Shown in pieces: positions 15,263-64,000 of a DNA stretch of 64,000 nt. The stretch comes from an uncultured Ignavibacteriaceae bacterium. GTDB lineage: Bacteria; Bacteroidota; Ignavibacteria; Ignavibacteriales; Ignavibacteriaceae. The notes below the pieces were generated by a model, which saw only the letters and a program-made list of their open reading frames with translations, did not search any database and had not been told where the DNA came from. Position 1 is the first letter of the stretch. Each line of letters begins with the position of its first letter. The translations under genes and the position numbers were made by a program. The DNA is taken from the NCBI GenBank assembly GCA_963714415.1, contig CAVQOL010000014.1:10223-74222 (forward strand), written 5' to 3'.

Positions 15263-16528
15263 TTGAAGAAATTCTTTAAAATACCAGGGAGTTATAAAAC
15301 TCTAATTCAGAATTTCTTTTCACTATCAGCACTTCAGTTTTTCAATTATTTATTCCCACTTATAACTCTTCCTTATGTCGTTCGAGTATTAGGACCGGAA
15401 AAATTTGGTTTGGTAAATTTTGCAGCGGCGTTCGTTGGGTATTTCATTACAATCAGTGATTATGGGTTTAATCTTTCTGCAACCAGACAGATTTCAGTTA
15501 ATCGGGATGATCAAAATGAAATAAATAAAATATTTATTTCTGTTATTTTCTCAAAAATTTTATTAGGAATCATTTCTTTCTCCATTTTGATAATTGCAAT
15601 TTTAAGCTTTGAAATATTCAGAAATGAATATCTGCTCTACTTAATCTCATTTGGATTGGTAATCTCGACAATTCTTTTTCCATTCTGGTTATTACAGGGA
15701 TTGGAAAAAATGAAATATATTCCTTTAATTCATCTTGTACCAAAGATCATTGGTACGATTTTAATATTTACAATTATTACAAGTACAGATGATTTTTTAC
15801 TTTATGCTTTAATTCTTTCCGGAGTACAATTAAGCATTGGAATTATCGGATTGCTCTTTGCCATTCGTATAATCAAACTAAAATGGATTTCACCATCATT
15901 CACTAGTATTAAAACTCAATTAAGTGATGGACTTGAGATATTTAAATCAACTATTGCTATAAATCTTTATACAAATAGCAATACATTCATACTGGGTTTG
16001 TTAACTAATAATGAAGTCGTCGGATATTTTTCTGCTGCGGATAAGATCAGGATATTTTTTCAAAGTTTTTTTTCTCCAGTTTCTCAAAGTGTTTTCCCAT
16101 TTGTAAATTATTTGTTGAAGGAATCAAAAGAGAAATTATTATTGTTCAATAAAAAATTGCTAAAATTTCAAGCACTAACCGGAATAGTAATTTCAGTATT
16201 AATTTTCATTTTTGCCGAACAAATTGTTTATCTAATTTTGGGCGATAATTATATGGAATCAGTATTGATCTTAAGAATTATTTGCTGGCTTCCATTTATA
16301 ATTTATATAAGTAATATCTATGGAATTCAAACAATGCTGCCTTTGGGTTTCGACAGACATTTTTTTCTTATAGTTGCGTTGGCTGCAATAATCAATCTAT
16401 CGATAGCCTTTTTGCTTGTACCTTTTTATCAGGCAATCGGCACCTCCATTGCAGTTCTAGTAACAGAAATATTTGTAACTATTAGTATGATTTTATTTTT
16501 ATACAAGAAACAAGTAAAGCTGTTATAA
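15263..16528 (+). CDS. Wzx-type oligosaccharide/polysaccharide flippase
   Basis: 421 aa and multi-spanning throughout. N-terminal NFFSLSALQFFNYLFPLITLPYVVRVLGPEKFG is typical of the polysaccharide biosynthesis flippase family. TTG start. Confidence 0.8.
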   Translation: MKKFFKIPGSYKTLIQNFFSLSALQFFNYLFPLITLPYVVRVLGPEKFGLVNFAAAFVGYFITISDYGFNLSATRQISVNRDDQNEINKIFISVIFSKILLGIISFSILIIAILSFEIFRNEYLLYLISFGLVISTILFPFWLLQGLEKMKYIPLIHLVPKIIGTILIFTIITSTDDFLLYALILSGVQLSIGIIGLLFAIRIIKLKWISPSFTSIKTQLSDGLEIFKSTIAINLYTNSNTFILGLLTNNEVVGYFSAADKIRIFFQSFFSPVSQSVFPFVNYLLKESKEKLLLFNKKLLKFQALTGIVISVLIFIFAEQIVYLILGDNYMESVLILRIICWLPFIIYISNIYGIQTMLPLGFDRHFFLIVALAAIINLSIAFLLVPFYQAIGTSIAVLVTEIFVTISMILFLYKKQVKLL

Positions 16529-16529
16529 G

Positions 16530-17626
16530 ATGAAATACGATTACTTAATTGTTGGTGCCGGATTTGCAGGATCAGTAATGGCTGAAAGATTAGCTTCTCA
16601 GCTTAACAAAAAAGTATTATTGGTCGAGAAAAGAAATCACATTGGAGGTAATGCATATGATGAATATGACGAGCACGGAATTTTAGTTCATCGTTATGGA
16701 CCACATATTTTTCATACAAACAGTAAAGAAGTATTTGATTATCTTTCACAGTTTACTAAATGGATTCCGTATGAACATAAAGTTTTAGCAAAATTTAATG
16801 AAAATTATATCCAATTCCAATAAACAGATTAACAATAAATCAATTATATAATCTAAATCTGAAAACAGAGGAAGAAGTAAAAAATTATTTTGAGAAGGTT
16901 AAAGAGCACAGGCATCCAATAATGAATTCAGAAGATATTATTGTTAATCAGGTTGGAAAAGATTTATTTGAGAAGTTCTTTAAACACTACACAAAAAAAC
17001 AATGGAATCTTGAGCCAGAAGAATTATCGCCGTCTGTATGCGGAAGAATTCCGGTTAGAACAAATGATGATTGCAGATACTTTACAGATAAGTATCAGTT
17101 TATGCCCAAAGATGGTTACACAAGAATGTTTGAAAAGATGTTGAATCATAAAAACATAGAAGTAATTTTAAATACAGATTATAAAAGCATTGTTGATACA
17201 ATTAAATTTGATAAGATGATTTACACAGGACCAATTGATTATTTTTTTGATTATCAGTTTGGAAAACTTCCATACAGATCCATAAGGTTTGAGTTTAAGA
17301 ATTTGAAACAGGACAACTATCAGGAAACGGCTCAAATAAATTATGTTGATGATTCAGTTGAGTTTACACGAGTTATTGAGCATAAATTACTTAGTCAGCA
17401 AAACTCAGAAACTACAACAGTTTCATTTGAATATCCACAACAGGAAGGCGAACCATTTTATCCGATACCAAATGAAAATAACAGGCAACAATATTTACTT
17501 TATAAGAACGATGCACAAAAGTTGAAAAATACAATTTTCTGCGGTCGCTTAGCTGAATACCAATATTATAATATGGATCAGGTTGTGGCGAATACATTGA
17601 AGATATTTGAGAATGAATTATTATGA
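16530..17626 (+). pseudogene. glf: UDP-galactopyranose mutase, one apparent frameshift
   Basis: FAD fold MKYDYLIVGAGFAGSVMAERLA, HIGGNAYD and GPHIFHT. The frame breaks at ~16808 (YIQFQ* versus YPIPINRLTINQLYNLNLKTEEEV...MNSEDII). The C-terminus has RLAEYQYYNMDQVV. Confidence 0.88.
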
Positions 17627-18538
17627 ATGAAAATCCTCTGGTAACCGTAAATATTCTGTCATTCAATCGAAGAGAAGAATTACGAAATACTTTAACAAAA
17701 GTTTTTGAACAGGATTATAAAAATATTGAGATTATAGTCGTAGATAATGCATCTAGTGATGGCAGTTCCGAAATGGTTAAGAATGAATTTCCTGATGTCC
17801 AACTAATCCAGCTTGAAGAGAATATTGGAATTGCCGGATGGAATGAAGGTTTCAAAGCTGCAAAAGGGGTGTATGTTTTGGTGTTGGATGATGATAGCTA
17901 CCGGATACTAATACAATTACAAACGGATTAAAATGCTTTATAGATTCGAATAATCTGGGCATAGTTGCATATAATATTTTCAATAAAAGATTAAATAAAT
18001 CAGAGACTTTGATGGTTTTAATATTACCCCAAGATTTTTTGTTGGATGTGGTGCGTTAATTAAAAAAGAATTAATTATTACAGATAGGACCTTACAACGA
18101 TTTATATTTCATTTATTATCACGAATTAGATTATAGTGCAAGATGTTATGACGCAGATTATGGTATAAAATATCTTCCTGATACTAAAGTAAATCACAAT
18201 CAAAGTTTATTAGCAAGAGGAGATAAAATAGAAAACCCATATTTATCAGAATACAGGATATAAGTATTATTTTATAAGTTATTCAATTTTTTTAATGCAG
18301 AATTTTTATATAAGATATTTAATTAGATATCAAATTAAATGGATATGTAACAGAACAATTATTTGCTTTTAAACATCAATTTTATAAAGCTTATTTTTCA
18401 GCCATTTGGCAATTACTAAAAAAAATAAATATTATATTAAAACAGAGAAGAGTCTTATCCAAAGAAGTTCAAAAATTTTACAATTTTGGGAATGTACCAT
18501 TAATTGACAGATCATATTTTATTGCTAATCCATTATGA
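17623..18538 (+). pseudogene. Family 2 glycosyltransferase, multiply frameshifted
   Basis: An intact N-terminus (VTVNILSFNRREEL...IIVVDNASSDGS...VLVLDDDSY) stops at 17931. Later fragments in other frames read GCGALIKKELI, YHELDYSARCYDADYGIKYLPDTKVNHNQS and a tail ending IDRSYFIANPL*. It has ATGA overlaps with both neighbours. Confidence 0.7.
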
Positions 18539-19701
18539 ATGATAAACCAGTCTGGCAAATTTATTTCAATAATTTTGTTGCTTTTGTAATATTTATTTTT
18601 TTCAAATATTTATTAAAGGATAAAAATATTTCCCAAAATAATATATTGTTTATTAACACAGGTCAAATAGGTGATATCATAATATCAAGCGTACTTTTCG
18701 AGAATATTACAAATTTTAATAAAAATCAAAAAATATTTTTCTTAATAAACGAAAATTATAATGAAATATTCAAGAATTACTTAGGCCCAGTACAAATAAT
18801 TAATTGGAATTATAAAAAGTATAAATTCAATTTTTATTATAGAATAAATTTTTTAAGAAAAATAAGAAAGATTGGTTTTGATATAACAGTAAATTTGACA
18901 GCAGCAAGAGGAATAACTAATGATGAGATAGCATTGTTGAGTGGTGCAAGAGAAATAATATGTTTGAATTCTAATTGGAGATATCTTAAAAAAATTTTCG
19001 GAAAAAAGATGGACTCTTTTTATGATATTATTATTAATACAAATTCAAATAATGAATTTGACAGACAACTAATTGCTATTGAATATTTAACGGGTAGAGT
19101 TCCAATATTCAAAACGTGAGTTTATATCAGTAATGTCACTGAAAATAAAGTAAGAAACTTGATATTAAATATATTGGATTTAGATAAGATTCCAATTATT
19201 GTAACGATTGCACCATTAACAGATTTGTCAATTAAAAACTGGGGTATGGCGAATTATAAAAAATTAATTGAGAAGATTTTGGAGTACAACGATTTAATAG
19301 TTGTATTAATTGGAAATAAAAATCAAACGAAAGAATTAGAAAGTTTAACAACAATAAATAGTAACAGAGTAATAAATATGGCGGGTAGATTATCAATATT
19401 CGAGAAAGCGCATCATTTGTTAAAATATCTTCTCTTTTCATCGGGAACGATTCGGGATTTACTCATATAGCTAAAGCCTTACGGAAGCAATTAGTAGGTA
19501 TTATTGGTGGAGGATCTTTTGGTATTTTCTTCCCTTATAATAAGAATTCAAATGAAGTTTATCTTTATTCGGATTTAGAATGTTTTGGTTGTGGATGGAG
19601 ATGTATTAAGGATAGACCTTACCTGTCATCAGAATCTAACAGTTGAGGAAGTATTTGAATATATCAAAAAAATGATCCCTAATGTATATGATAACTTTTA
19701 A
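18535..19701 (+). pseudogene. Family 9 (heptosyltransferase-like) glycosyltransferase, frameshifted
   Basis: Pieces are 18535..19119 and 19159..19470. A further frame reads GNDSGFTHIAKALRKQLVGIIGGGSFGIFFPYN...LECFGCGWRCIKDRPY, which is a GT9-type C-terminus. Confidence 0.6.
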
Positions 19702-19810
19702 GTACAAAATTATTTTCAAACAATTGATGTTTTTAATTAAGCAATTCACTCTCATATAAATTTCATATTTTAGTTAAAAATCCTCATATTCCATCAATTT
19801 CAGATTTAAT

Positions 19811-46304: not shown

Positions 46305-48791
46305 TTAGCTGATTTCTTCTGAATTCAAAGTAAAAATAACTTTTGTACCCCGATCTTTTTCACTTTCAACTCTTAGATCTCCGCCGTGTTTATTCACAAT
46401 TTCTTTACAAAGCATTAATCCTAAGCCCGTACCTTTTTCCTGTTCTGTTCCTCTGGTGGAGAAAGTAGAATCAATTTTAAATAATTTATCAATATCTTCA
46501 GGTTCAATACCAATTCCATTATCCTCAATAGAAATTTCAATAATCTCGTCATAAATAGTGGAATCAATAATAACCTCTCCAAAACGGTTTGTAAACTTTA
46601 TTGAATTCGATATTAGATTCTGGAATAATGAATTAAGCATATACTTGTCGCCCCAGACGAATGTACCCTGCTGTATATTATTTTTAATCTTTGTATTCTT
46701 TAGTTCTGATGTTTGGAAAAGAAGCATTTTAGTGCTTTCAACAATTTCAAAAAGATCAATTTTACTTGGATGGTATTTCAATCTGCCGGTTTGTAATCGA
46801 GACCATTCCAACAAATTTTCAATTAGCTTATATGTGCTTTCAGCAGATTCATTTAAGGCGAGAACAAAACTTCTTAACTCTTCTCCACTAAGTTCATCGA
46901 AATCTTCAACAATTAATCTTGATAAACCCATTAAACCCTGGAATGGACTTTTTAAATCATGAGCAACAATTGAGAAAAACTTATCTTTAGATGCATTTAA
47001 TTCCTGTAATTCAGCAGAATAACTTTTTAGTTTATAATCCGAATTCTTTTTCGTTATGGCACTTGCAATCTGTTCACACACATAGGTCAATATTCTCAAT
47101 TCTTCCTGGCCATAAGTTTTTGGTTCTTCATAATCCTGAACTACGAGTGTACCAATTGTTTTTTCTCCAATCTTTAAAGGAACACCGAGCCATATTTGAG
47201 CAGGTTCACCCAATAAATTGGTTTCACCAAGTTTTCTTAATGCCATATCAAGTTCTGAATCAATTAAATGTGCCTTACCGGATCTCAATATGTACTCAGT
47301 TAAACCTTTGCCTGCAATTCTTGGCATAGGTTGTTCGTCAAACTGATCAACAAAATAGGGGAATGAAAGTATTTTGGTATTTTCATCATACAAAGCGATA
47401 TAAAAATTATCTGCCTTCATCAAAGATTTTACAGCCTGATGAATTTCAGAGTACAGATCATCCATTTCATCAACTGAATTTACTGCAGTTGATATTTTCA
47501 GAAGTGTTTGCTGTATAAGTTCAGACTTTTTAATTTGAGTGAAATCAGTAGAAATTCCAAATGTCCCAATTATTTTTCCATTTTCATCTTTCAAAGGAAC
47601 TCTGGTAGTATTTACCCAGCTGATTGAACCATCCTCGCCAGGTTTCCTTTTCAATTTTGTTAATTATCGTTTCTTTGCCATTTATTAGTTTTAATTCATC
47701 AGCTCTTGCTACTATCAGCATGTTCTTTAGAAAAAATGTCATAATCTGTTTTACCAATTAGTTGTTCAAAATCACTAAAGCCAAGTTAAGTAATGGTTGC
47801 TTTATTTACCTTTATAAATCTACTATCAAGATCTTTGAAATAGATAGAAAAAGGAATGTAATCCATAAAATATTGCGTAAGATTTCTTTCCCATGAAATG
47901 ATGCTTATCTTTTTCTTTTCTTTCAGATATATCTCTTACAATAAGTATGAGATCATGTTCATTCTCAGAATCAATAACTGAAGCGGAAATCTCAACAGGA
48001 ATGGTTTGGCCATCACTTTTATAGGCTATAGTTTCAAATGAATTGCTAATTGTACTAGTATTAACCTTTAGATTTATTGCTTTAAATTTATTTTCAATTA
48101 CGTTCCTATTTTCCTTAGGGAAAATTAAATCTATTAAATTTTTGCCTTCTGTAGCTTTATAGTTATATCCAAATATCTTTTCTGCGGTTTTATTCCAATA
48201 AGTGATTTTAAATTCACCGGTTAATATTATTATACCGTCGGCTGCGGAGTTAGTAATTGTGTTAAATTTATTTTTTAACTCTCGAAGTTCTCTTTTTACT
48301 TTTATCTTTTCAGAATTGTCAGTAACAATTCCTACAATAACACTTTCTTTTTTAGTTTTTAACAATCCCACATTCAATGTAACCGGTATTATCTTTTTGC
48401 CATTTTTATGTAAGAGATTCACATCGTAATTGCGAGGTAATTCTTTTCCTGCGAACCGCAGTTCTGCTCTTTGCATCACTAACTTAAGATAACTTGGAGC
48501 AACCACATCTTTGAGTTTCAACTTCAGAAGTTCATCAGGTTTGTAACCAAGCATATTAGCTAAGGCTTCATTAACAGATTGGAAACCGGATTTTGACAGT
48601 ATAAATAGTCCGTCTAAAACGGTAGCTGCAACAGTCTCAAATTCACTAGCAGATTCAAGTTTGGTGAGTTTATTCTGTAATCGTTTTAACTTACTTTCAA
48701 GTTTAGAAATCTCTTCAAGTAAGTCAGATTTAGTTTTATTTTTATACTGATTTTTCAACAGTCGATTATTCCCAGAATTTTGTAATATCAA
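46305..48791 (-). pseudogene. Multi-PAS / GAF sensor histidine kinase, four lesions clustered in 47650-47930
   Basis: ORF 46305..47654 has PAS-C, GAF, the H-box FSIVAHDLKSPF and G-boxes (DNGIGI, GTGLGLMLCKEIV). ORF 47826..48791 has a coiled coil plus two PAS domains. The linker encodes a third PAS (ISWERNLTQYFMDYIPFSIYFKDLDSRFIKVNKATIT*LGFSDFEQLIGKTDYDIFSKEHA). Confidence 0.8.
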
Positions 48792-51163: not shown

Positions 51164-52545
51164 ATGACTACAGCACCCAAAAAGTTAGCGATATTAGTGG
51201 GTGGAGGTCCTGCACCAGGAATTAATAGTGTTATTGGTGCTGCAACAATAAGAGCAGAAGTTGAAGGTATTGAAGTTATTGGTATTAAAGACGGATTTAA
51301 ATGGATTATGGAAGGTAATATTTCTGAAGTAAAAGAATTAACAATCCATAGTGTTAGCAGGATACATTTCAGGGGTGGATCTCATATTGGAATTTCAAGG
51401 GCAAATCCTACTAAAGATAAAAAACATCTTGAAAATGCTGTTAATTCACTATTAAGACTTAACGTGGATAAGTTAATTACAATTGGTGGTGATGACACTG
51501 CGTACAGTGCACTGAAAATAAATGAGATGGCTGCCGGCAGAATAAAAGTAGTTCATGTACCTAAAACAATTGATAACGATCTTGATCTTCCTCATGGTAT
51601 TCCTACTTTCGGTTTCCAAACCGCAAGACACATTGGTGTTGAAGTTGTTAAAAATTTGATGGTGGATGCACAAACAACTTCGCGCTGGTATTTTGTTGTT
51701 TCTATGGGAAGAAAAGCCGGGCATCTTGCATTGGGTATTGGTAAAGCAACAGGTGCAACTCTTGACATTAATTCCTGAAGAGTTTCAATCGAAAGAAATT
51801 AAACTTTCGCACATTGTTGATATCCTTGTCGGTGCGATAATCAAAAGATTGAGCTATGGTAAAACAGACGGCGTAGCAATTCTTGCTGAAGGATTAGTTG
51901 AGCATCTTAATCCTAATGATTTTGAATTTTTAGTTAATGTTGAAAGAGATGCACATGATAACATTAGAATAGCAGAAATAAACTTCGGTGAAATACTTAA
52001 ATCTAAAGTACAGGAAAGATTAAAACAGTTTGGAATAAAATCTACAATTGTTGCTAAAAATATTGGTTATGAATTAAGATGTGCCGATCCTATTCCATTT
52101 GATATGGAATACACGCGTGATCTGGGATTCTCAGCTGCTCAATTTATTCTGAGTGGTGGAAGTGGAGCAATGGTTTCAATTCAAAACGGTCACTTTGTAC
52201 CTTTGTACTTTCAAAGAGATTATTGATCCTGTTACACAAAGAACACGTGTCAGGATGGTTGATCCTGCATCTGAGACTTTCTATATTGCCAGAAGATATA
52301 TGCTGCGGTTAAATCATGCGGATTTTGAAGATCCTCACGAACTTGCTAAATATGCTGCAACTGCTGGTATATCTCTTGAAGAATTTAAAGAGCAGTTTTA
52401 TTATTTAATCGAAAAAGACCTTCTTTATAAAAACCTTAAAGAGGGAAAATTAAAGCTTGCGGCAAATGAAAGTAACACGTTATTCAAATCTTATGATGAA
52501 CCTGATTTGAGAGAGTTTGGCAACATTAGTGATGATCGATATTAA
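51164..52545 (+). pseudogene. pfp: Phosphofructokinase of the PPi-dependent type, two apparent frameshifts
   Basis: LAILVGGGPAPGINSVI, TIGGDDT, PKTIDNDL and MGRKAGHLALG. Pieces 51164..51778, 51666..52226 and 52153..52545 rejoin at ~51760 (GATLDINS*/LIPEEFQSKE) and ~52210 (VPLYFQRDY*/FKEIIDPVTQRT). Confidence 0.85.
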
Positions 52546-54557: not shown

Positions 54558-55193
54558 ATGCCCAAAAATTTTGTATCTAATAAAGATGAAACTATAAGGA
54601 TGTTTAATAATAATTTTTTTGAAGCTTTATCCCGGGTGCATCCGTCAGTTCCTTTGATAATTTATGTTCCTGTAATATTCTATATGCTCTATCTTTCAAT
54701 ATGGCAGCACCAGCTTTCAGCATTGAATATAATAACGCTAATTATATTAGGAATATTTATCTGGACAATTACAGAATATATGCTTCACAGATTTGTATTT
54801 CACTTCCAACCAAAAAGTAAAATTGGAGAAAGGTTGCATTTCATTTTTCATGGTGTTCATCATGATTATCCTAGTGATTCAAGAAGACTTGTAATGCCGC
54901 CTTCGGCAAGTATTCCGCTTGCTTTATTATTCTATTTTTTGTTTGTTCTAATACTAGGCGATGTACTTGTATTTCCGTTCTTTGCTGGCTTTCTTGCCGG
55001 TTATTTATTTTATGATATAACACATTTTGCAATTCATCATTTTAATATGCACAGTAAATTTTGGTTAGCAATTAAGAACCATCATATGAAACATCATTAT
55101 CAGGATCCCAGTAAAGGTTTCGGTGTCAGCACTCCATTTTGGGATGCAGTGATAGGAACTAATTTTGCACCGAATAAGTTTCAAGTCAAGTAA
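54558..55193 (+). CDS. Fatty acid hydroxylase / sterol desaturase superfamily membrane protein
   Basis: His boxes HRFVFH, HGVHHDY, HHFNMH and HHMKHHY, with four TM segments. Confidence 0.8.
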   Translation: MPKNFVSNKDETIRMFNNNFFEALSRVHPSVPLIIYVPVIFYMLYLSIWQHQLSALNIITLIILGIFIWTITEYMLHRFVFHFQPKSKIGERLHFIFHGVHHDYPSDSRRLVMPPSASIPLALLFYFLFVLILGDVLVFPFFAGFLAGYLFYDITHFAIHHFNMHSKFWLAIKNHHMKHHYQDPSKGFGVSTPFWDAVIGTNFAPNKFQVK

Positions 55194-55203
55194 AAAAGTA
55201 AAA

Positions 55204-56853
55204 ATGAATTCTACAAAGGGTCTTAATATTGCTTTCATTTTGTTTCTTATTTTTAGTTGCCAGGCTGCTGATCAGAATAAAATATTTATCAGACTGAATC
55301 AGGTTGGTTTCCTTCCCAATGATATTAAAACAGCAGTAGTAATTTCTAAAAAGCCAATTCAATCGAATGAGTTTTTCATAAGAAATTTTCTTGACAATGA
55401 AAAAGTATATGAAATGTTACTACCTAAAAACTTTTTTTCATATGGCAATTTTAATTATTGCTTAGAAATTGATTTTTCTAAATTTCAGAATGAAGGAAAG
55501 TATTATTTAGAAATTGATAATCAAAAATCCTATGTGTTTCAAATAGGTGAAAATATTTTTAACAGTGTGAGAGACTCTCTCAGCATATTTTTTAAGGTTC
55601 AGCGCTGTGGACCAACTAATCCGTTGCTTCACGAGCCCTGCCATCTTTCGGATGTAGCTTTTGTTCTCGGTCAGTCGGATTCATCAATGATTGATGTTAC
55701 CGGTGGTTGGCACGATGCGGGTGATTATCTAAAATTTTTCTCAACTGCTGCTTATACAACATATCTTTTGCTTTTCAGTTACGAGTTTGATCAAAATAAA
55801 TTCAATTATGACCTTGACAATAATCAAGTGCCAGATATTCTCGAGGAAGCAAGAGTTGGATTGGACTGGTTATTACGATGCAGATTTAAAGAGGATCTCT
55901 TTATAACGCAGGTACAGGATATTTCTGATCACAAGGTCGGTTGGCGTTTGCCTGAAAATGATACCTTACGATATAACAGACCCGGTTATGCAGGAATAGG
56001 TAAAAATCAAATTGGAATTTTTACTGCCGTAATGTCCCTTGCATCAAGAATATGGAGTGAAAGGTTCTATGATTATGAATTTGCAAATAAATTACTTAAG
56101 TCAGCAACAGAAGTTTATTCATTAATAAATACTGTTCCTGATATCGATAACACACAATCAGGTTTTTATCAGGATTTCGATCATTGGGGAAAACTTTCAC
56201 TTGGAGCCATAGAATTATTTCTATCAACAAAAGAAAAAAAATATTATAACGATGCACTTAATTTTGCCGATAGTGCAAAGTCTGATTTCTGGTGGAGTTG
56301 GGGAAATATGAATTCATTAGCTTATTATAAGATTGCAAAATATGATTCTAACTATATTTCACGTATCAAGAGAAACCTTGATTATAATAAAAAAAAATCC
56401 AGTCAATCATTATTTAGAGAAGCTGCTGATTATACCTGGGGAAGTACAAATTCGTTTCTTGGTGCCGCTCTTCAAGCAATTCTTTATAAAGAGGTGACTG
56501 GAAAAAATGATTATGACTCGTTGATGATTTTTCAAAGGGATTATATTCTTGGTAGAAATCCTTGGGGAATATCTTTCATATATAATGTTGGGACTACATT
56601 TTCAAAAAATTTGCACTCTCAGATAGGATATTTTAACAATAGCTATTTGCCCGGTGCTTTAAGTTCTGGTCCATCTCCCGCTAAAATTTTGGAAAAATAT
56701 CCAATAGAGCGAACTGACAGTTCGACAAATTTATTTAACACTGATTCTGTAAAATACTTTGATGATTTTAACGATTTTATAACAAACGAACCAACAATTG
56801 GAAGCAACGCAACAGCCTTATTTGTATTTGGTTTTTTCTCAAAAAGTAACTGA
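55204..56853 (+). CDS. Glycoside hydrolase family 9 (endoglucanase-like) lipoprotein
   Basis: Lipobox LIFSCQ, an Ig-like N-domain, GGWHDAGDYLKF, DWLLRC and C-terminal NEPTIGSNATA. The ATG at 55204 is preferred over the ORF-track start at 55165. Confidence 0.82.
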   Translation: MNSTKGLNIAFILFLIFSCQAADQNKIFIRLNQVGFLPNDIKTAVVISKKPIQSNEFFIRNFLDNEKVYEMLLPKNFFSYGNFNYCLEIDFSKFQNEGKYYLEIDNQKSYVFQIGENIFNSVRDSLSIFFKVQRCGPTNPLLHEPCHLSDVAFVLGQSDSSMIDVTGGWHDAGDYLKFFSTAAYTTYLLLFSYEFDQNKFNYDLDNNQVPDILEEARVGLDWLLRCRFKEDLFITQVQDISDHKVGWRLPENDTLRYNRPGYAGIGKNQIGIFTAVMSLASRIWSERFYDYEFANKLLKSATEVYSLINTVPDIDNTQSGFYQDFDHWGKLSLGAIELFLSTKEKKYYNDALNFADSAKSDFWWSWGNMNSLAYYKIAKYDSNYISRIKRNLDYNKKKSSQSLFREAADYTWGSTNSFLGAALQAILYKEVTGKNDYDSLMIFQRDYILGRNPWGISFIYNVGTTFSKNLHSQIGYFNNSYLPGALSSGPSPAKILEKYPIERTDSSTNLFNTDSVKYFDDFNDFITNEPTIGSNATALFVFGFFSKSN

Positions 56854-57039: not shown

Positions 57040-58278
57040 ATGAAAAAAAGTATCCAGTTGGTGCCATCCGGCATCTCAATAGCGGACAATGCCTGGGGTG
57101 GTTTTTACAGAGGAGGGACTTATCTTTTAATTGGACCTAGAAAATCAGGAAAAACACTATTAAGCCTACAATTTGCTTTAGAGTGTGCCAAACAAAAAGA
57201 AGTCTGCCTTTATTTCACCAACATGCGTCCCAAAGACTTGATGATTCAAGCTGCGTCAATTGATTTTGATTTGCAGCACTATATGAATCAGAATTTAATT
57301 ATTGTAGTTAAAGTTGCTCCTCCGGCTGATTTAGCCGATTATAAAAATCGTGACGAACTTCTTATTGAATATCTTAAAGATATTGTAACCGTTGTTGAGC
57401 AGTATCAACCATGCAAATTGGTTTTTGATGAACTAACTCCTTTTATCGGTTTTGAAAATCTTTCTTTGCTTGAAGAAACATTTCTTGAAACTACTGAAAA
57501 AATTGAAGACTCCGGAATTACCAGTCTGTTTGTTCTAGGTGAACCGGCTGTTCCAAGTTCAAGATTAATTCTTGATTCGGTTAATTTAGCTGCAACAGGG
57601 ATTGTTCATCTTCAAAAGCAAACCGATACTTACGATAGGACCAAAGGTGGAATAATTAGTATTTCACCAAACATTGGTCACACCGAAGGAAAATTTAAAG
57701 CCAACTATTATATAGAGGCTTATAAAGGAATAACAACCGATTTTCAACCTGTAAAACGAAAAACCTTAACCGGAGAAAGATTTACATCGCTTGAAGATGA
57801 TAAATTCAAATCACTTTCAGAAATTGATATTCCTCCCGTTAATTATTCTTTATCTAATTTCTATAGTATTGATGACTTTATATTAATTCTAAATAATCAA
57901 ATAGCACTTTTTAAAAGTACAGGTCAAACTTTTCGCCTAATTGCTATTAAATATGCTGATGATTTAGAAAGGACAGGCTTGCTGTCTGTAAATCAACTTC
58001 AAAATGCATTAAGGCTTGCTATTGACAAGAAGGATAAGATTTGTATTTGTGAAAATAAAATATTGATACTTATAACAAAAGATGACCAGAGAAATGTCAC
58101 TAATTTTATTTCGCGTTTTAAATATAATCTTCCGGTTTTGGATGAAGATCAATTATTTGAAATAATGCGGAGAGTTTTTGTTTACACATCAAAAGTAAAT
58201 GAAGAAACACGTAATGCTGATGATCTCTTACAAAAATTAATCTCTGGAAAAAATTTTAATAGAAATTCGTACGATTAA
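57040..58278 (+). CDS. RecA/KaiC-like ATPase domain fused to a GGDEF-like (non-GGDEF) C-terminal domain; putative EPS regulator
   Basis: VPSGISIADNAWGGFYRGGTYLLIGPRKSGKTLLSLQFALE (Walker A GPRKSGKT), KLVFDELT (Walker B-like) and GIVHLQ. The C-terminal ~170 aa have a GGDEF-domain-like beta-alpha layout (FRLIAIKYADD...ALRLAIDKKDKICICENKILILITKDD) with no GGDEF motif. Confidence 0.6.
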   Translation: MKKSIQLVPSGISIADNAWGGFYRGGTYLLIGPRKSGKTLLSLQFALECAKQKEVCLYFTNMRPKDLMIQAASIDFDLQHYMNQNLIIVVKVAPPADLADYKNRDELLIEYLKDIVTVVEQYQPCKLVFDELTPFIGFENLSLLEETFLETTEKIEDSGITSLFVLGEPAVPSSRLILDSVNLAATGIVHLQKQTDTYDRTKGGIISISPNIGHTEGKFKANYYIEAYKGITTDFQPVKRKTLTGERFTSLEDDKFKSLSEIDIPPVNYSLSNFYSIDDFILILNNQIALFKSTGQTFRLIAIKYADDLERTGLLSVNQLQNALRLAIDKKDKICICENKILILITKDDQRNVTNFISRFKYNLPVLDEDQLFEIMRRVFVYTSKVNEETRNADDLLQKLISGKNFNRNSYD

Positions 58279-58292
58279 CATCAGGTTATAGG

Positions 58293-61142
58293 ATGAAGAC
58301 AATTAATACTCTGCTAGTTGGGCTTCTCCTATTTACTTCTTTAGTCTTTCCTCAAAATGGCACTGAAGAACTTAAACTCGAAGCCAACCAACTCATAAAC
58401 ATGGGAAGATATGGTGAAGCTATTGATTTGCTGAATCGTTTCATAGCTGAAAATCCCCAGAACATAGAAGGATTTTTACTACGCGGAACTTGCTATGAAA
58501 AAAGAGGTGAGTTTGAGTTTGCAGTTTACGATTACAAAACAGCAAAAAAAATCTCTCCGGCAAATATTGAAGTTAATAACAAACTGAATTCAGCAGTTGA
58601 ATCGTGGAATATACTTCTCTATAATAAAATTGAAGGACATCAGAGAGAAATTGCCATTCACCCGGATCGTGCAATTAATTATCTGGAAATCGGAATATGT
58701 TATAAAAATCTTGGTGAGTGGAAAGAAGCTGAGATTTGGTATGATGAGTATCTGAAAAGAGAAGAAGCATCTGCTGACGAAGTTTTAAGATATGCTGAAA
58801 TACTTGCTAAGAATAATCAACTAAAAAAGGGCGAGGAGATATTAAAAAAATATTCCGTAAAAAATTCTGATGATCACAGAATCTGGTCTCGCTATGGTTA
58901 TTTTCTTTACTGGTTGGGTAAAAGACGATTAGCCGTAAATGCTTTTGAACAATCACTGACTATTAGACCATTCTTTAAAGAAGCTCTAGATGGTTTAGAT
59001 TTGGCTAAAGGCAGAGGTTATGTTTATACAACAAATGATACAACTAAAAGATATTCTTACGGCATAGCATCCGGAGTTCCGGAGTATATTATCGACAAGC
59101 TTTACAGAAAAATTAAAAATGATCCCAAAGATGATAATACAAGATTTAAGTTAATTGACGAACTTGTTAAAGTTCAACGATTTGAAGAAGCTTATGAACA
59201 ACTAAGATTTTTATCAGACAAGTATTCTGATTCAGAAGATTTTAAAAATCTGTATTCCATAGTTTTAGAAAACCGGGATGCATATTATAAAAATAAGATT
59301 GACGAATATCACGCTAAGTTGCTTTCTGATCCAAACAATGTTGAAGTTTTATTACAATTGGCTAAATATTATTCATATCAGAATGAATACATTTCTTCTA
59401 AGGAAATGTATGAACGTTATTTGAAATTGAAGCCTGAAGATCTGGATGCGAGATTTAATTATGCACAATTGCTATCGTGGAATGATGAACTTTCTCTTGC
59501 TAAAGATGAGGCTGATGTGCTTTTAACAAAAAATCCAGAAAAAACTGAATACCAATTATTAAAAGCTAACATTGGATTCTGGATGGATGAAAATCTTGAC
59601 CAGTCAAAACTGCTATACGAAAAAGTAATTGGAAATCAGCCTGATAATAAAGAAGCCTTGTTTGGATTGGCATATCTTAGTTTGCGTATTAATAAAATTA
59701 AAGATGCAGAAAAATACTATGCAACATTATTAAAAGATGAGAGTATTTCTTCAAAGGAATTAAAAGAATTGTCATTAAGCATTGAGCTTAATAAACAAAG
59801 AATAAAAGATGAAGAGTTGTATGCTTATTTAGAGAGTGCAAGAAAATATGCCTATGAGAATATTTGCGATAGTGCTATAACAAATTTTGAAAAATATTTT
59901 GAAAAGGGCGGAACAAATAAAAATATTTATTTCGAATTAGCTAATGGATATCAATGTATTGGGAATTATGATAAAGCGATAAGTATTTATGACGATTTAA
60001 TTGCCTCGGGCTTTAATGATTACGAAACAAAAAAACAAAGAGCAAAAATAATTTTCTGGAGCGGTGATTCGTTAAATGCTTTACGGGAGTTCAGGAAATT
60101 AGTATCTGAAAATCCTGAAGATGCAGAATCGAAGTTATATCTGGGCGACAGTTATGTTAAGCTAAAACAATATCAGAGTGCCAGAGAAATTTATCAGGAA
60201 ATGCTTAAGGAATCCCCGGAATCACATATTATCAAAACTCGTATGAGGTGGTTGGGTAGTGAAGGGATAGATACTTTTTCATTCGATACTTTTCCGACTT
60301 ACATTTTAGTAATACCTCAGGGAAATTATTTTACTGACAACACAAAGTTTAAGTACAATCTAGTTGGTCTGGGTTTAGAATTAGGAGCAACAAATTATTT
60401 ATCATTAGGAATTTCAGGTTACCGTGGAACTTTGTCATCTGAATTCAATAAATTAAATTTTAACAATCTAAAAGGTTCATTACATATAAGATTTAATGAA
60501 TTTACAAGAGCTTACGTTTCGTTTGGACAAACATACTTTGTGAATAATCGTAGTGAAAATATTATTGAAGCTGCAATGTTCTTTCACAAGAAAGACATCT
60601 ATAGTGCATCAATTTTCTATAATAATATGGATGCTGCATTTATTTTGTATTCACCATTTTTAGTGATAAACAGATTTACTGCAGAACACTTAGGTTTTAA
60701 CGGCAATTATAATTTCAGGAGCGGATTGCTTATTTCAGGTAAATATGCTTTTATAAATGTTTCTGACGATAATGAAGGTAATCAATTTGAATTCAGATTG
60801 GGCAAAAAATTTCAAAAGGATATTAAAGCCGGGTATGAGTATTATTACTATACGTTTTCGGATTCATCTTTTTTATACTGGAGTCCTGAAAATTTTGAAT
60901 CACATTCTATTTGGGCAGACTTCAACCTAGTTAATGATGATGAAACAACTATTAATCTTGGAGGCAAACTCGGACTGATACCTGAAAACGATTATTTACT
61001 TAGAGAATTTTATGCAGAAGTAAAGTATATGCTGGTTCCGAATTTTAATTTACAAGCTAGATTTGTTTCCGGAAGCAGCTCAAGATCGGGAATAGGTTAT
61101 AATTCAACTTCTATTCAATTGAATGCATTTTGGACATTATAA
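58293..61142 (+). CDS. TPR-repeat plus C-terminal beta-barrel outer-membrane protein (PgaA/PelB/BcsC-like EPS porin)
   Basis: Signal peptide, ~640 aa of TPR-like repeats, then ~300 aa of alternating beta-strand sequence ending ...IQLNAFWTL. Confidence 0.7.
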   Translation: MKTINTLLVGLLLFTSLVFPQNGTEELKLEANQLINMGRYGEAIDLLNRFIAENPQNIEGFLLRGTCYEKRGEFEFAVYDYKTAKKISPANIEVNNKLNSAVESWNILLYNKIEGHQREIAIHPDRAINYLEIGICYKNLGEWKEAEIWYDEYLKREEASADEVLRYAEILAKNNQLKKGEEILKKYSVKNSDDHRIWSRYGYFLYWLGKRRLAVNAFEQSLTIRPFFKEALDGLDLAKGRGYVYTTNDTTKRYSYGIASGVPEYIIDKLYRKIKNDPKDDNTRFKLIDELVKVQRFEEAYEQLRFLSDKYSDSEDFKNLYSIVLENRDAYYKNKIDEYHAKLLSDPNNVEVLLQLAKYYSYQNEYISSKEMYERYLKLKPEDLDARFNYAQLLSWNDELSLAKDEADVLLTKNPEKTEYQLLKANIGFWMDENLDQSKLLYEKVIGNQPDNKEALFGLAYLSLRINKIKDAEKYYATLLKDESISSKELKELSLSIELNKQRIKDEELYAYLESARKYAYENICDSAITNFEKYFEKGGTNKNIYFELANGYQCIGNYDKAISIYDDLIASGFNDYETKKQRAKIIFWSGDSLNALREFRKLVSENPEDAESKLYLGDSYVKLKQYQSAREIYQEMLKESPESHIIKTRMRWLGSEGIDTFSFDTFPTYILVIPQGNYFTDNTKFKYNLVGLGLELGATNYLSLGISGYRGTLSSEFNKLNFNNLKGSLHIRFNEFTRAYVSFGQTYFVNNRSENIIEAAMFFHKKDIYSASIFYNNMDAAFILYSPFLVINRFTAEHLGFNGNYNFRSGLLISGKYAFINVSDDNEGNQFEFRLGKKFQKDIKAGYEYYYYTFSDSSFLYWSPENFESHSIWADFNLVNDDETTINLGGKLGLIPENDYLLREFYAEVKYMLVPNFNLQARFVSGSSSRSGIGYNSTSIQLNAFWTL

Positions 61143-61160
61143 TTATTTTTGTTTATTGAT

Positions 61161-62555
61161 ATGAATGTTAATCCTAACATAAAAAAAAGTTTATTTACTA
61201 TTGAAAGCAAGGATGAAACCCGTGCAACTGAAAATCCAGAACAAAAATATCTTCGCAGGATTTTAGTCAGCGGTATATCTTCTTTGATTTTAATTCTGAT
61301 AATTGTTTACACATTACCTCACACAATTCTATCGGTAAATTCATTAATTGAATATGCAGTAATAGTTGCATTAGTAATTTTCTTATTCATTTTATTGATT
61401 CGTTATTTTACAATTTTAATATTCGCTTATTTCTATTTGAATGAATATACATTCAAAAAGAATGGAGATTTTTCGCCTTTCGTTTCAGTGATCATTCCCG
61501 TTTTTAACGAAGAAAAAGTTATACGACAGACAATTAAATCGTTGCTTAATTTGGATTATTCAAACTATGAAATAATTATTGTTAACGACGGTTCAACTGA
61601 TAAAACAAAGTCAGTTGCTGAATCTCTTGTTGGAAATCATCCAGGAGTTCATAGTAAAATAAAAGTATCACTTATAAATCAATCCAACAGTGGTAAAGCC
61701 AGAGCTTTAAATGCAGGTATCCAATATTCTAAAGCCGATTTTGTTCTTTGTATGGATGGTGATTCACAGCTTTCTCCTGATTCCCTGAAGTCTGCTGCCA
61801 GGCATTTTTCTAATCCTAAAATTGGAGCCGTGGCAGGCAACGTAAAAGTCTTGAACAGGCGAAAGTTTTTTACTGATCTTCAAGCCCTTGAATATATCGA
61901 AGGTTTGAATATGGCTCGGAGTGCTCAAAGTTTCATAAGATTAGTTAATATTATTCCCGGACCTATTGGCGTATTCAGAAAAAAAGCTATTGAAGATGCC
62001 GGGTATTACTCAAGTGATACTTTTGCAGAAGATGCCGACCTTACTGTAAAAATTATTGCCTCAGGTTGGAAAATATATTATGAACCAAATTCAATTTCTT
62101 ATACTGAAGCTCCAAGCACATTACAGCAGCTGTTAAAACAAAGATATCGCTGGACAAGGGGTATTCTTCAATCGCTGAGAAAACACAAAAGATTACTGAT
62201 CAATCCAACTATAAATTTTGGTCACACGTTTATTTTATGGTCAATGTTTTACGAAGCTTTAGTTTGGCCTGCTATGAATATAGCGGCAAATGTTTTCTTT
62301 ATAACTGCTGCATTAATATTTGGATTTACCCAATTGATTTTTTTCTGGTGGGCTGGTTTAGCTTTACTAGATTTAGTAACTGCTCTTTATTGTGTTGCTG
62401 TTGAGAAAGAAGAGTTCAGATTAATTTGGTATGCAATTATTTACAGAATGTTTTTCATTCTTATAATTGATATTTGTAAAGCTATGTCAACCATAGAAGA
62501 ATTTCTGGGAATAAGAATGACCTGGGGTAAATTAGAAAGAGTGGGCTCAGTTTAA
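61161..62555 (+). CDS. Processive family 2 glycosyltransferase (PgaC/IcaA/NodC-like polysaccharide synthase)
   Basis: VSVIIPVFNEE, IIIVNDGSTD, LCMDGDSQL, FAEDADLT and the QxxRW motif QRYRWTRG. TM helices flank the catalytic domain. Confidence 0.85.
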   Translation: MNVNPNIKKSLFTIESKDETRATENPEQKYLRRILVSGISSLILILIIVYTLPHTILSVNSLIEYAVIVALVIFLFILLIRYFTILIFAYFYLNEYTFKKNGDFSPFVSVIIPVFNEEKVIRQTIKSLLNLDYSNYEIIIVNDGSTDKTKSVAESLVGNHPGVHSKIKVSLINQSNSGKARALNAGIQYSKADFVLCMDGDSQLSPDSLKSAARHFSNPKIGAVAGNVKVLNRRKFFTDLQALEYIEGLNMARSAQSFIRLVNIIPGPIGVFRKKAIEDAGYYSSDTFAEDADLTVKIIASGWKIYYEPNSISYTEAPSTLQQLLKQRYRWTRGILQSLRKHKRLLINPTINFGHTFILWSMFYEALVWPAMNIAANVFFITAALIFGFTQLIFFWWAGLALLDLVTALYCVAVEKEEFRLIWYAIIYRMFFILIIDICKAMSTIEEFLGIRMTWGKLERVGSV

Positions 62556-63045: not shown

Positions 63046-64000
63046 TTAACGCTCCTAACAAAGGAAGAGTAAATCTATTTTTGATTTTATTTTCCGGATT
63101 AGTTATTCTCAGTGCTGCTGTTCTGGTTTATTACTTCGTATTACGCGGAGTTTATGGACGATTTGATATAACCTCATTATTACCTACAAAAGAGACAGTA
63201 AATAAGACATTAATTGGTGAAACCGATCAGGTAGCAATCCTTTACTCAAACTACACTGAAAATATGTTACCCGAAGGAAGTACATGGTTAGCAGATAATA
63301 TTTCAACGTGGAAGAAATTCCTTGGCAATATGAAACTTGGTTATGATATTCTATCTGATCAGGACGTAGAGCAGGGGAAACATCTTAGATACAGATTACT
63401 TGTTCTTCCGGGTTCAAAATCTTTAAGTGACAAGGAAATCTTTCAGATAAAAAAATATCTTGAAAGCGGTGGAAGCGTTTTTGCAACCAGCGGTATTGCC
63501 AGTTATTCCGAAGACGGAAAATGGAGAGGATGGCAATTCTTTAATCAGGTTTTCGGAATGCAGTTTACTCACGAAATTAAAAATGATAATTCTTTAAAAA
63601 TTCATACTCTCAGAGGTGGAATTCCTCTTACAGCTACAATTCCAACCGGTTATCCGTTAAAGGTTGCAACCTGGGATATCCCTATGGCAGCAGAAGTTCT
63701 TGAGCCAAGAACAAATCAGGTTAGTTTCTGGTATAATTTCAGGCTTGAAGATGGTTTGGTCAGAGAAGGAGTTAAACGCTCAACAGGAATTGCTAATGGA
63801 TGTTATGGTGAAGGAAGATTTGTTTGGATGGGTTTTGAAATTAATTCGGTTGTTGGCTTGCAAGAAGATTACATCTTGTTCGACAGATTTTTTAACAACT
63901 GTGTCCATTGGTTAACATACAGTCCAATTGCTTATGTAAAAGATTGGCCGGAAGGATATGATGCTGCCGCAGTAATTATGCCGGTTCTTTCCAATGATGT
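63036..64000 (+). CDS. Membrane-anchored protein with a glutamine-amidotransferase-like alpha/beta domain, continues past the window end; possible EPS-modifying enzyme
   Basis: Not in the ORF track because it has no stop. Own translation: MALINAPNKGRVNLFLILFSGLVILSAAVLVYYF...YRLLVLPGSKSLSDKEIFQIKKYLESGGSVFATSG...GEGRFVWMGFEI...YVKDWPEGYDAAAVIMPVLSNDV. The ATG overlaps the upstream stop by 10 nt. Confidence 0.6.
   Translation, partial: MALINAPNKGRVNLFLILFSGLVILSAAVLVYYFVLRGVYGRFDITSLLPTKETVNKTLIGETDQVAILYSNYTENMLPEGSTWLADNISTWKKFLGNMKLGYDILSDQDVEQGKHLRYRLLVLPGSKSLSDKEIFQIKKYLESGGSVFATSGIASYSEDGKWRGWQFFNQVFGMQFTHEIKNDNSLKIHTLRGGIPLTATIPTGYPLKVATWDIPMAAEVLEPRTNQVSFWYNFRLEDGLVREGVKRSTGIANGCYGEGRFVWMGFEINSVVGLQEDYILFDRFFNNCVHWLTYSPIAYVKDWPEGYDAAAVIMPVLSND

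Follow-up and report, generated by a model that had tools for sequence, protein, structure and literature searches.

We analyzed a gene encoding a 412-residue protein within a 64,000-nucleotide stretch of DNA from an uncultured Ignavibacteriaceae bacterium (hereafter the window, with a G+C content of ∼32 %). The protein joins an N-terminal KaiC-like domain to a C-terminal, degenerate GGDEF-like domain (Table 1), and its gene is an integral part of a class-wide, synthase-dependent exopolysaccharide (EPS) operon. By analogy with BcsE, we hold with moderate confidence that this protein belongs, as an accessory or regulatory subunit in the cytoplasm, to an EPS secretion system specific to Ignavibacteria, acting as a nucleotide-binding, oligomerising scaffold or switch that gates the synthase. 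The system would comprise a PgaC-like family 2 glycosyltransferase (GT2), a PgaA/BcsC-like TPR exporter, a GH9 hydrolase, deacetylase-like proteins, and a small protein with a single transmembrane helix. The KaiC-like module would bind nucleotide and oligomerise as a scaffold without fast turnover, and the GGDEF-like module would bind a ligand or a partner, for which the D-K-K-D-K loop and LNNQIA/KSTGQ are candidate surfaces. Through contact with the synthase or the small transmembrane protein, the two modules together would act post-translationally on the inner-membrane synthase, by assembling on it, gating it, or tuning it, much as BcsE acts on cellulose synthase.

The initial annotation of this gene had read it as a RecA/KaiC-like ATPase fused to a dead GGDEF domain that senses cyclic di-GMP (c-di-GMP), in the style of BcsE and PelD. 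The open reading frame (ORF) and the four motifs quoted there do exist: GPRKSGKT at residues 32-39, KLVFDELT at 126-133, CENK at 337-340, and RNAD at 391-394. A database search returned 1216 homologues at E≤1e-3, of which the nearest are up to 100 % identical and come from Ignavibacteria-type genomes; the source labels of the homologues are 'RAD55 family ATPase', 'circadian clock protein KaiC', and 'hypothetical protein'. An alignment of 49 sequences of 55-85 % identity contains 86 invariant columns, indicating that both domains are under strong purifying selection. The per-residue counts given below (x/135) refer to alignment columns over 135 full-length relatives. In the full-length AlphaFold model (mean predicted local distance difference test score, pLDDT, of 78; predicted TM-score, pTM, of 0.56), the linker between the two domains is flexible.

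The N-terminal KaiC-like domain

The assignment of the N-terminal region to the KaiC/RecA superfamily is borne out by sequence and structure alike, and is statistically solid. The Pfam family PF06745 (KaiC) matches residues 8-202 with an E of 7.8e-22 (78.2 bits against a cut-off of 26.6), KaiC chains in the PDB are retrieved at E 2e-15 from the single sequence and at 1.9e-20 from the family profile (phmmer, hmmsearch), and Foldseek superimposes the domain on single-domain KaiC-like structures, namely PH0186 and KaiC-CI, with target-normalised TM-scores of 0.79-0.81 and an E of 1e-14. The domain thus has the RecA/KaiC core fold. There is only one KaiC domain, and its score lies far under every NCBIfam equivalog cut-off for KaiC, ArlH, and RadB. 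The hallmarks of a circadian KaiC are absent: the models NF006799 and TIGR02655 score 46.6 bits (against 408) and 26.4 bits (against 546), respectively, and the tandem domains are missing.

Both nucleotide-binding motifs, Walker A GxxxxGK[ST] (GPRKSGKT) and Walker B hhhhD (LVFD130), are present in the focal protein, so that the earlier description of the Walker motifs as intact is correct for this one sequence. It does not extend to the family, in which the Walker Lys at position 38 is Arg in 121/135 relatives, the catalytic Glu-Glu pair is replaced by [S/N]-M, and a Pro (Pro210, in a low-confidence stretch of the alignment) appears to take the place of the Arg finger. Lys38 is kept in 14 sequences, which comprise the focal protein, those closest to it, and several members on deep branches, and which are scattered over the family; this sporadic alternation of Lys and Arg across lineages fits a role in binding rather than in catalysis. 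In the HMMER alignment the KaiC segment 'VTfEESPDD' is matched by 'ft.smrPkd', and Glu occurs at neither of the positions aligned to the catalytic pair (KaiC E77/E78 and E318/E319) in any of the 135 relatives: position 61 is Ser in 92 and Asn in 38, and position 62 is Met in 128, the focal protein having N61-M62. The trans-acting Lys/Arg finger (KaiC K224/R226 and K457/R459) is likewise not seen, as the KaiC segment 'K-F-R-G-T-S-H' aligns to 'I-t-P-N-I-G-H' and places I208 and P210 (each 133/135) at the critical positions, R226 corresponding to P210; the posterior confidence of this stretch of the alignment is low.

Judged from its sequence, the KaiC-like domain is therefore catalytically degenerate throughout the family, with the Arg finger only apparently absent. 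RecA mutants of the K72R type bind ATP but hydrolyse it poorly, and the Lys-to-Arg pattern at position 38 resembles a natural equivalent of such mutants.

The C-terminal domain and its I-site position

No Pfam family, PF00990 (GGDEF) included, matches the C-terminal domain of the focal protein at E≤1; of the two relaxed-threshold hidden Markov model (HMM) searches proposed with the initial annotation, the one with PF06745 was thus positive (E 7.8e-22) and the one with PF00990 was negative. When 33 C-terminal domains of the family were scanned singly, PF00990 appeared in 1/33, with an E of 0.02, and no family appeared in more than two members. A HMMER search with residues 230-412 against 1.84 billion cluster representatives returned only 44 clusters, almost all of which represent members of this family, whole or fragmentary. 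The family profile of the domain likewise found nothing significant among PDB sequences, the best matches being AP-2 beta (E 0.04) and 9l7c (E 0.14), of which the latter is an uncharacterised 'GGDEF domain-containing protein'.

The predicted structure is more informative. In the full-length model the domain follows the order α277-294, β299-305, α317-327, β333-337, β340-345, α350-362, α369-377, β379-385, and α393-401. Because the Foldseek list for the full-length model was dominated by KaiC matches, we modelled residues 262-412 alone, from an alignment of 52 sequences, and obtained a pLDDT of 86.7 and a pTM of 0.79. The top 50 PDB matches of this model are GGDEF domains only, with a probability of 1.00, E-values of 1.2e-5 to 4.4e-4, and query-normalised TM-scores that mostly fall at 0.6-0.65 (range 0.49-0.66); they include Idiomarina PadC, a T. 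maritima diguanylate cyclase, DosC, WspR, PleD, SiaD, and YfiN. We also compared the 33-sequence alignment of the domain with the GGDEF domains of eight E. coli proteins, using hhalign. The two align in register over 129-147 columns with a probability of 62.6 %, an E of 7.2e-5, and a score of 34.6, compared with 15.7 (0.5 %) for a reversed GGDEF alignment and at most 18.4 (≤1.4 %) for 12 block-shuffles. The GGDEF-only structural matches, together with a profile signal that is weak but real and stands above its controls, indicate that the domain, as modelled, is a highly diverged GGDEF-like palm domain. The GGDEF spacing recognized in the initial annotation is thus confirmed by structure and by hhalign, though not by the PF00990 HMM. 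The extent given there, ∼170 residues, was too long: the ordered part covers ∼130 residues (273-402) and follows a disordered linker of ∼38 residues (235-272).

The residues that define a cyclase are missing from this fold. CENK had been said to stand where the GGDEF motif would be, which is right to within one residue, as hhalign places GG[DE]EF at E338-(gap)-N339-K340-I341, a register with which the hairpin seen in the models agrees; CENK as a whole is not conserved, only N339 and K340 being so (C 7/135, E 18/135, N 117/135, K 89/135). In the same register the first metal-binding Asp of 'DxD' aligns to K304, and the 'xINDxxGH' phosphate/base-binding (substrate) loop is 7 residues shorter. 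The domain is predicted to be incapable of making c-di-GMP, cyclase activity being excluded by the absence of GG[DE]EF, the Lys at the first metal Asp, and the 7-residue loop deletion.

Two proteins outside the usual architecture were encountered in relation to this domain, and neither says anything about function. In P0140 (L089, 8001-9254), on a single Logan contig, the N-terminal half of a FloA flotillin is joined to the family's GGDEF-like C-terminal domain; a normal FloA gene follows, and the setting is not an EPS operon. This protein may represent a genuine domain shuffle or, given a single contig with a second FloA gene adjoining, an assembly chimera. P0160 is a 1389-residue protein in an apparent archaeal ribosomal-protein context, with a weak local match to the domain.

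The position of the inhibitory site (I-site) of GGDEF domains, at which c-di-GMP is bound through an RxxD motif, reads D329-K330-K331-D332, followed by K333. No other element on the surface of the domain is conserved as strongly as this loop (K/R330 131/135, K331 127/135, D332 130/135, K333 135/135), and it probably matters for something. Arg is not found at the first position of RxxD in any of the 135 relatives, the residues being Asp in 121, Glu in 10, and Ser, Phe, Gly, and Asn in 1 each; in Melioribacter, cultured strains included, the position is Ser or Thr. RNAD, the RxxD candidate of the initial annotation, belongs to the final helix, whereas an I-site motif would precede the GGDEF position by five residues. 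No more than 22/135 relatives share its Arg (Gln 49, Lys 24, Asn also occurring), and conservation is limited to N-A-[DE]-D; by position, the segment would correspond to the 'ADxALY' helix of GGDEF domains. The argument from motifs for a c-di-GMP receptor therefore fails on both counts, the I-site being D-K-K-D-K without Arg and RNAD being misplaced and variable, and no motif evidence for c-di-GMP binding remains at the level of the protein sequence. In BcsE, a mutant in which R415TGD is changed to D415TGA no longer binds c-di-GMP (PMC7439463). It is possible that c-di-GMP is nevertheless the ligand, but it would need a non-canonical site.

The genomic and literature context was also searched for traces of c-di-GMP signalling. 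An HMM built from the eight E. coli domains found no canonical GGDEF gene in the window, in the loci L001-L003 (from three Ignavibacteria genomes), or in 79 further loci (82 related loci, ∼1.1 Mb); because these loci are largely the same syntenic region, this is weak evidence and is uninformative genome-wide. Our literature search returned nothing connecting Ignavibacteria with c-di-GMP signalling, GGDEF, or diguanylate cyclase, and a search on KaiC with GGDEF and exopolysaccharide returned nothing on this protein family.

Table 1. Features of the KaiC/GGDEF-like gene and its neighbours, with window coordinates and the number of related loci in which each neighbour was recognized.
Feature	Position	Strand	Related loci	Evidence and remarks
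KaiC-like / GGDEF-like two-domain protein (focal gene)	57040..58278 incl. stop	+		ATG start; ORF of 412 aa
N-terminal KaiC/RecA-like domain	57049..57741 (aa 4-234)	+		PF06745, PDB KaiC chains, Foldseek; AlphaFold pLDDT mostly 80-95
Walker A / P-loop GPRKSGKT	57133..57156 (aa 32-39)	+		G32, K35, G37, T39 near-invariant
N61-M62	57220..57225	+		Position of KaiC catalytic Glu-Glu pair by HMMER alignment
Walker B region KLVFDELT	57415..57438 (aa 126-133)	+		D130 135/135, E131 132/135, T133 134/135
Interdomain linker, disordered, of variable length	57742..57855 (aa 235-272)	+		pLDDT<50 for 239-272; poorly conserved in alignments
C-terminal degenerate GGDEF-like domain	57856..58245 (aa 273-402)	+		Model, Foldseek, hhalign
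D329-K330-K331-D332-K333 loop at GGDEF inhibitory (RxxD) site position	58024..58038	+		hhalign register
C337-E338-N339-K340-I341, β-hairpin at GG[DE]EF position	58048..58062	+		Strands 333-337 and 340-345 in models; hhalign register
R391-N392-A393-D394 (RNAD), start of last helix (393-401)	58210..58221	+		Full-length model; conserved part N-A-[DE]-D
GH9 glycoside hydrolase, N-terminal lipoprotein-like signal	55165..56853	+	42/79, upstream	PF00759 E 1.3e-77, CelD_N; 186 bp upstream of focal gene
TPR-repeat protein, 949 aa, signal peptide	58293..61142	+	73/79, directly downstream (TPR outer-membrane gene)	Many TPR families; weak PgaA and BcsC NCBIfam matches; BLASTP to BcsC E 1e-4; starts 14 bp after focal gene
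Membrane GT2 processive synthase, PgaC/IcaA/NodC-like, QRYRW motif	61149..62555	+	57/79, near	PF00535 E 9e-36; TIGR03937 E 1.8e-61, below cut-off
Small single-transmembrane-helix protein, 147 aa	62602..63045	+	57/79, near, after GT2	No Pfam or NCBIfam match
Start of 632-aa-type polysaccharide-deacetylase-like protein	63114..64000, runs past window end	+	55/79, near (deacetylase-like gene)	tblastn 62 % identity to the L001 632-aa protein, itself with weak PF01522 matches

The operon and its distribution

The expectation that the gene lies in a conserved synthase-dependent EPS operon, with a GT2 synthase, a TPR exporter, and modifying or hydrolysing enzymes, is upheld: the TPR gene adjoins the focal gene in 73/79 related loci, and where one of the neighbours is missing from a locus, a contig end mostly accounts for it (Table 1). 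The same gene order recurs in L001-L003. In a scan of one genome per GTDB species, 293 genomes encode the C-terminal domain, and the titles of the 79 listed loci are nearly all of the Ignavibacteria type (Ignavibacteriales, Ignavibacteriaceae, Melioribacter including cultured strains, and 'Bacteroidetes' metagenome-assembled genomes), the exceptions being one Acidobacteriota and one Bacillota. The cluster is thus a class-wide EPS operon, and its polymer is probably based on N-acetylglucosamine.

The claim that the gene is the first of its operon is less clear, as the focal gene is preceded on its own strand, at a distance of 186 bp, by the GH9 gene, which is also found upstream in 42/79 related loci. 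A scan for sigma-70 promoters and terminators around the gene did not rise above shuffled sequence (55 against 43.9±7.2, and 6 against 4.3±2.3, respectively), although the consensus may not fit this phylum. Downstream, the TPR protein is a probable PgaA/BcsC-like export component, with a presumed C-terminal outer-membrane barrel. In sequence identity the GT2 is nearer to E. coli PgaC (34 %, E 4e-51) than to BcsA (22 %), and PilZ is not matched in it by a Pfam/NCBIfam scan; a PgaC-like synthase with no PilZ match makes an external regulator plausible. The 147-residue protein has one N-terminal transmembrane helix and a conserved C-terminus (KFLKYTSEGYV...GALKWR); it may be a partner protein in the manner of PgaD or BcsF, serving either the synthase or the KaiC/GGDEF-like protein.

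In some genomes the focal gene is accompanied by paralogues. A second full-length copy of 413 residues lies beside it in L002 (11614-12855), and a KaiC-only paralogue of 245 residues with the canonical Walker Lys (GAHKSGKT) in L003 (9191-9928); these extra copies fit the formation of hetero-oligomers. Two-component genes also occur nearby: L002 and L003 have a receiver gene upstream of the focal gene, and the PAS-HisKA-REC hybrid kinase of L001 and L003 is encoded downstream of it.

Several further observations concern the surroundings of the gene. After the small transmembrane protein, L001 carries two paralogues of ∼550-630 residues (16169-19766, to be compared with 63114-64000 of the window), whose N-terminal regions are 22 % identical; the first matches the polysaccharide-deacetylase family PF01522 weakly and resembles glutamine amidotransferases in its N-terminal part, the second matches no family, and the pair may be polymer-modifying enzymes. 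A gene of the fatty-acid hydroxylase family (54558-55193, + strand) shares 29 bp with the GH9 gene, as counted from the TTG listed as the start of the latter. In L001-L003 it is followed by GH9 or by a small receiver gene, and it may form one transcript with the polysaccharide cluster. In four Melioribacter-type loci (L076, L077, L083, and L085) the GT2 lies ∼6.1 kb from the focal gene, compared with ∼4.3 kb elsewhere, which implies an extra gene or a longer TPR exporter in between. Further upstream in the window, a phosphofructokinase gene (51164-52545, + strand) is split into three overlapping ORFs of 204, 186, and 130 residues in different frames, whereas the syntenic gene in L001 and L003 is one ORF of 461 residues; the split implies two frameshifts, and hence a pseudogene or sequencing or assembly errors. 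On the minus strand, a GAF-HisKA-HATPase protein (449 residues, 46305-47654) and a PAS-PAS protein (321 residues, 47826-48791) are encoded 171 bp apart and may be one split sensor kinase or two genes.

Known systems, alternative readings, and significance

It is instructive to compare this protein with BcsE, in which a RecA-like N-terminal domain, modelled on KaiC and severely diverged in its Walker A, is followed by a receiver and a GGDEF domain, both degenerate, the latter binding c-di-GMP via R415xxD418 (PMC7439463). In BcsE the degenerate N-terminal domain serves oligomerisation and the GGDEF domain serves ligand and partner binding, and PelD is its closest structural homologue (PMC7439463). 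The parallel in design drawn by the initial annotation is therefore accurate: both are cytoplasmic proteins of synthase-dependent EPS systems, both place a degenerate RecA/KaiC-like module before a C-terminal dead GGDEF-like module, and both are encoded at or near the head of their operon (for BcsE, PMC7439463). The kinship with BcsE and PelD suggested at the same time is another matter. The focal protein has no match to PF10995 at E≤1, BLASTP to BcsE gives an E of 0.54, hhalign gives probabilities of 0.05-0.2 % against E. coli BcsE and against a BcsE alignment with ∼30 homologues, and the receiver domain of BcsE and the transmembrane and GAF regions of PelD are missing. A similar segment, 'TGD-IMTIG-GN-RLVLFLS' in BcsE and 'KKD-KICIC-EN-KILILIT' here, recurs in local alignments but is not statistically significant. 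BcsE also differs in having its receiver domain where the focal protein has a disordered linker, in an I-site of RxxD rather than D-K-K-D, in a severely diverged Walker A where the focal protein keeps its P-loop, and in a partner synthase, BcsA, that contains PilZ, whereas the partner here is PgaC-like. The GGDEF-like domain of the focal protein lies nearer to canonical cyclases than does that of BcsE, since its top 50 Foldseek matches are all canonical GGDEF domains and helix α-1 is kept. BcsB, BcsF, and BcsG were not recognized among the scanned operon proteins, none of which is annotated as a homologue of BcsQ or BcsR.

PelD, PssE (Listeria Pss), and YdaK (Bacillus YdaJKLMN) resemble the focal protein in that a dead GGDEF-like domain is encoded within a synthase-dependent EPS operon. 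The Pel, Pss, and YdaJKLMN operons also carry a glycoside hydrolase and a GT2 synthase. These three proteins differ in being membrane-anchored, PelD with an additional GAF domain, whereas the focal protein is soluble and has a KaiC-like domain; they also bind c-di-GMP through a conserved RxxD, which the focal protein lacks at its I-site. PelD is described as a dead-GGDEF c-di-GMP receptor (PMC7439463), and neither PelD nor BcsE appeared in the C-terminal profile search of PDB sequences at E≤10.

With single-domain KaiC-like ATPases (Pyrococcus PH0186, archaellum ArlH/FlaH, and KaiC-CI), the focal protein shares the fold, PF06745, the P-loop, and Walker B. Proteins of the ArlH type are nucleotide-binding regulators of a membrane machine, not motors. 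The focal family differs from them in lacking the catalytic Glu pair and, apparently, the Arg finger, in its mostly Arg Walker position, and in the fusion to a GGDEF-like domain. With canonical GGDEF cyclases (PleD, WspR, DosC, and DgcZ) it shares the order of palm-fold elements, the best structural matches, and a weak, in-register profile similarity; it departs from them in having neither GG[DE]EF nor RxxD, in the Lys at the first metal Asp, in a domain of ∼130 rather than ∼165 residues with a substrate loop shortened by 7 residues, and in the lack of a PF00990 match.

These comparisons allow the alternatives to be weighed. Gating by c-di-GMP is, as far as is known, common to essentially all synthase-dependent EPS systems that have been characterised, in several cases via dead GGDEF domains. 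This precedent, within which BcsE and PelD are so described (PMC7439463), favors a receptor in the style of BcsE, PelD, PssE, and YdaK, whose dead GGDEF-like domain would bind c-di-GMP and activate the synthase. The GGDEF-like fold found by Foldseek and hhalign, the GT2 that has no PilZ match, and the location of the most conserved loop, D329-K333, with its invariant K333 (135/135), exactly at the I-site position would all suit such a receptor. Even so, we regard it as rather unlikely: the RxxD Arg is essential in known I-site receptors and is replaced here by Asp or Glu in 131/135 relatives, with Arg seen in none; RNAD is wrongly placed and not conserved; homology to BcsE is lacking, and the PDB profile search found neither BcsE nor PelD; the literature search made no link between Ignavibacteria and c-di-GMP; and, more weakly since the loci share one region, canonical GGDEF genes are missing from the window and the 82 related loci. 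The protein could also be a gate independent of c-di-GMP, in which a KaiC-like ring deficient in hydrolysis would signal the ATP or energy status and the remodelled I-site (D-K-K-D-K) of a dead GGDEF fold would bind another nucleotide or alarmone, a sugar nucleotide, or the small transmembrane protein; or the protein could be a 'living intermediate' in an origin of the BcsE type, by fusion of a KaiC-like ATPase to a decaying diguanylate cyclase. We give this pair of possibilities only a small chance.

Two further readings would detach the protein from the secretion machine itself. KaiC-like ATPases have reportedly been proposed, by Makarova et al. in 2017, as hubs of signal transduction, and the focal protein could likewise have ATPase or autokinase activity of the KaiC type and, forming such a hub together with the two-component proteins encoded nearby, control expression of the operon. 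An invariant or near-invariant Walker B Asp-Glu, Lys38 in the focal protein and in many deep-branching members, the stand-alone receiver upstream (L002, L003), and the hybrid histidine kinase downstream (L001, L003) are in keeping with this. However, the family lacks the catalytic Glu pair and, apparently, the Arg finger, and mostly has Arg in place of Lys38; the gene is tied to the export and synthase genes, with a gap of 14 bp to the TPR gene, while the kinase lies ∼8 kb further downstream; and the protein contains no DNA-binding or phosphotransfer domain. We consider this reading improbable. A generic recombination or repair ATPase of the RAD55/RadA type, with incidental polysaccharide neighbours, would account for the source name 'RAD55 family ATPase' and for weak matches to RecA, RadB, and DnaB. 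Those matches are confined to the P-loop region (residues 3-73) and lie far under the cut-offs, the linkage to EPS genes holds in 73/79 loci across the whole class, and the C-terminal domain is GGDEF-like rather than DNA-binding; conserved synteny and the fold of this domain effectively exclude the reading, which we judge to be very improbable indeed.

Our preferred interpretation, a nucleotide-binding scaffold or switch acting on the synthase, has points weighing against it as well. A physical link between the protein and the synthase is putative, and gene linkage speaks for involvement in the pathway rather than for a mode of action, so that transcriptional or signalling roles fit it equally well. 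The full-length model shows no confident interdomain contact (pTM 0.56), and with no confident contact across the flexible linker no allosteric path is visible. The Arg-finger assignment depends on the low-confidence part of the HMM alignment, and genuine, if slow, ATPase or autokinase activity would be compatible with the conservation of T39 and K35 (both near-invariant) and of the Walker B Asp-Glu (invariant), and with Lys38 in the focal protein.

Our searches found no specific Pfam, NCBIfam, or literature description of this family, which is annotated by its P-loop half only. It is best classed among the dead-GGDEF accessory regulators of synthase-dependent polysaccharide secretion, as its putative function would imply, with a BcsE-like design and a remodelled I-site. 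Synthase-dependent EPS systems, such as those for cellulose, poly-N-acetylglucosamine, Pel, and alginate, are almost always switched post-translationally by c-di-GMP, often via inactivated GGDEF domains. Ignavibacteria (293 species-level genomes) have placed a different pair of dead enzymes on such a system, KaiC-like and GGDEF-like, without a canonical c-di-GMP site. If the protein does bind c-di-GMP, it would represent a new, non-RxxD binding mode on a GGDEF fold; if it does not, it would be an example of c-di-GMP-independent control of a synthase-dependent machine. Either way, the design of BcsE is paralleled without detectable sequence homology. More than 1000 proteins now named 'RAD55 family ATPase' or 'circadian clock protein KaiC' would thereby gain a function-oriented annotation, and because the gene is present in cultured Melioribacter strains, these questions are open to experiment.

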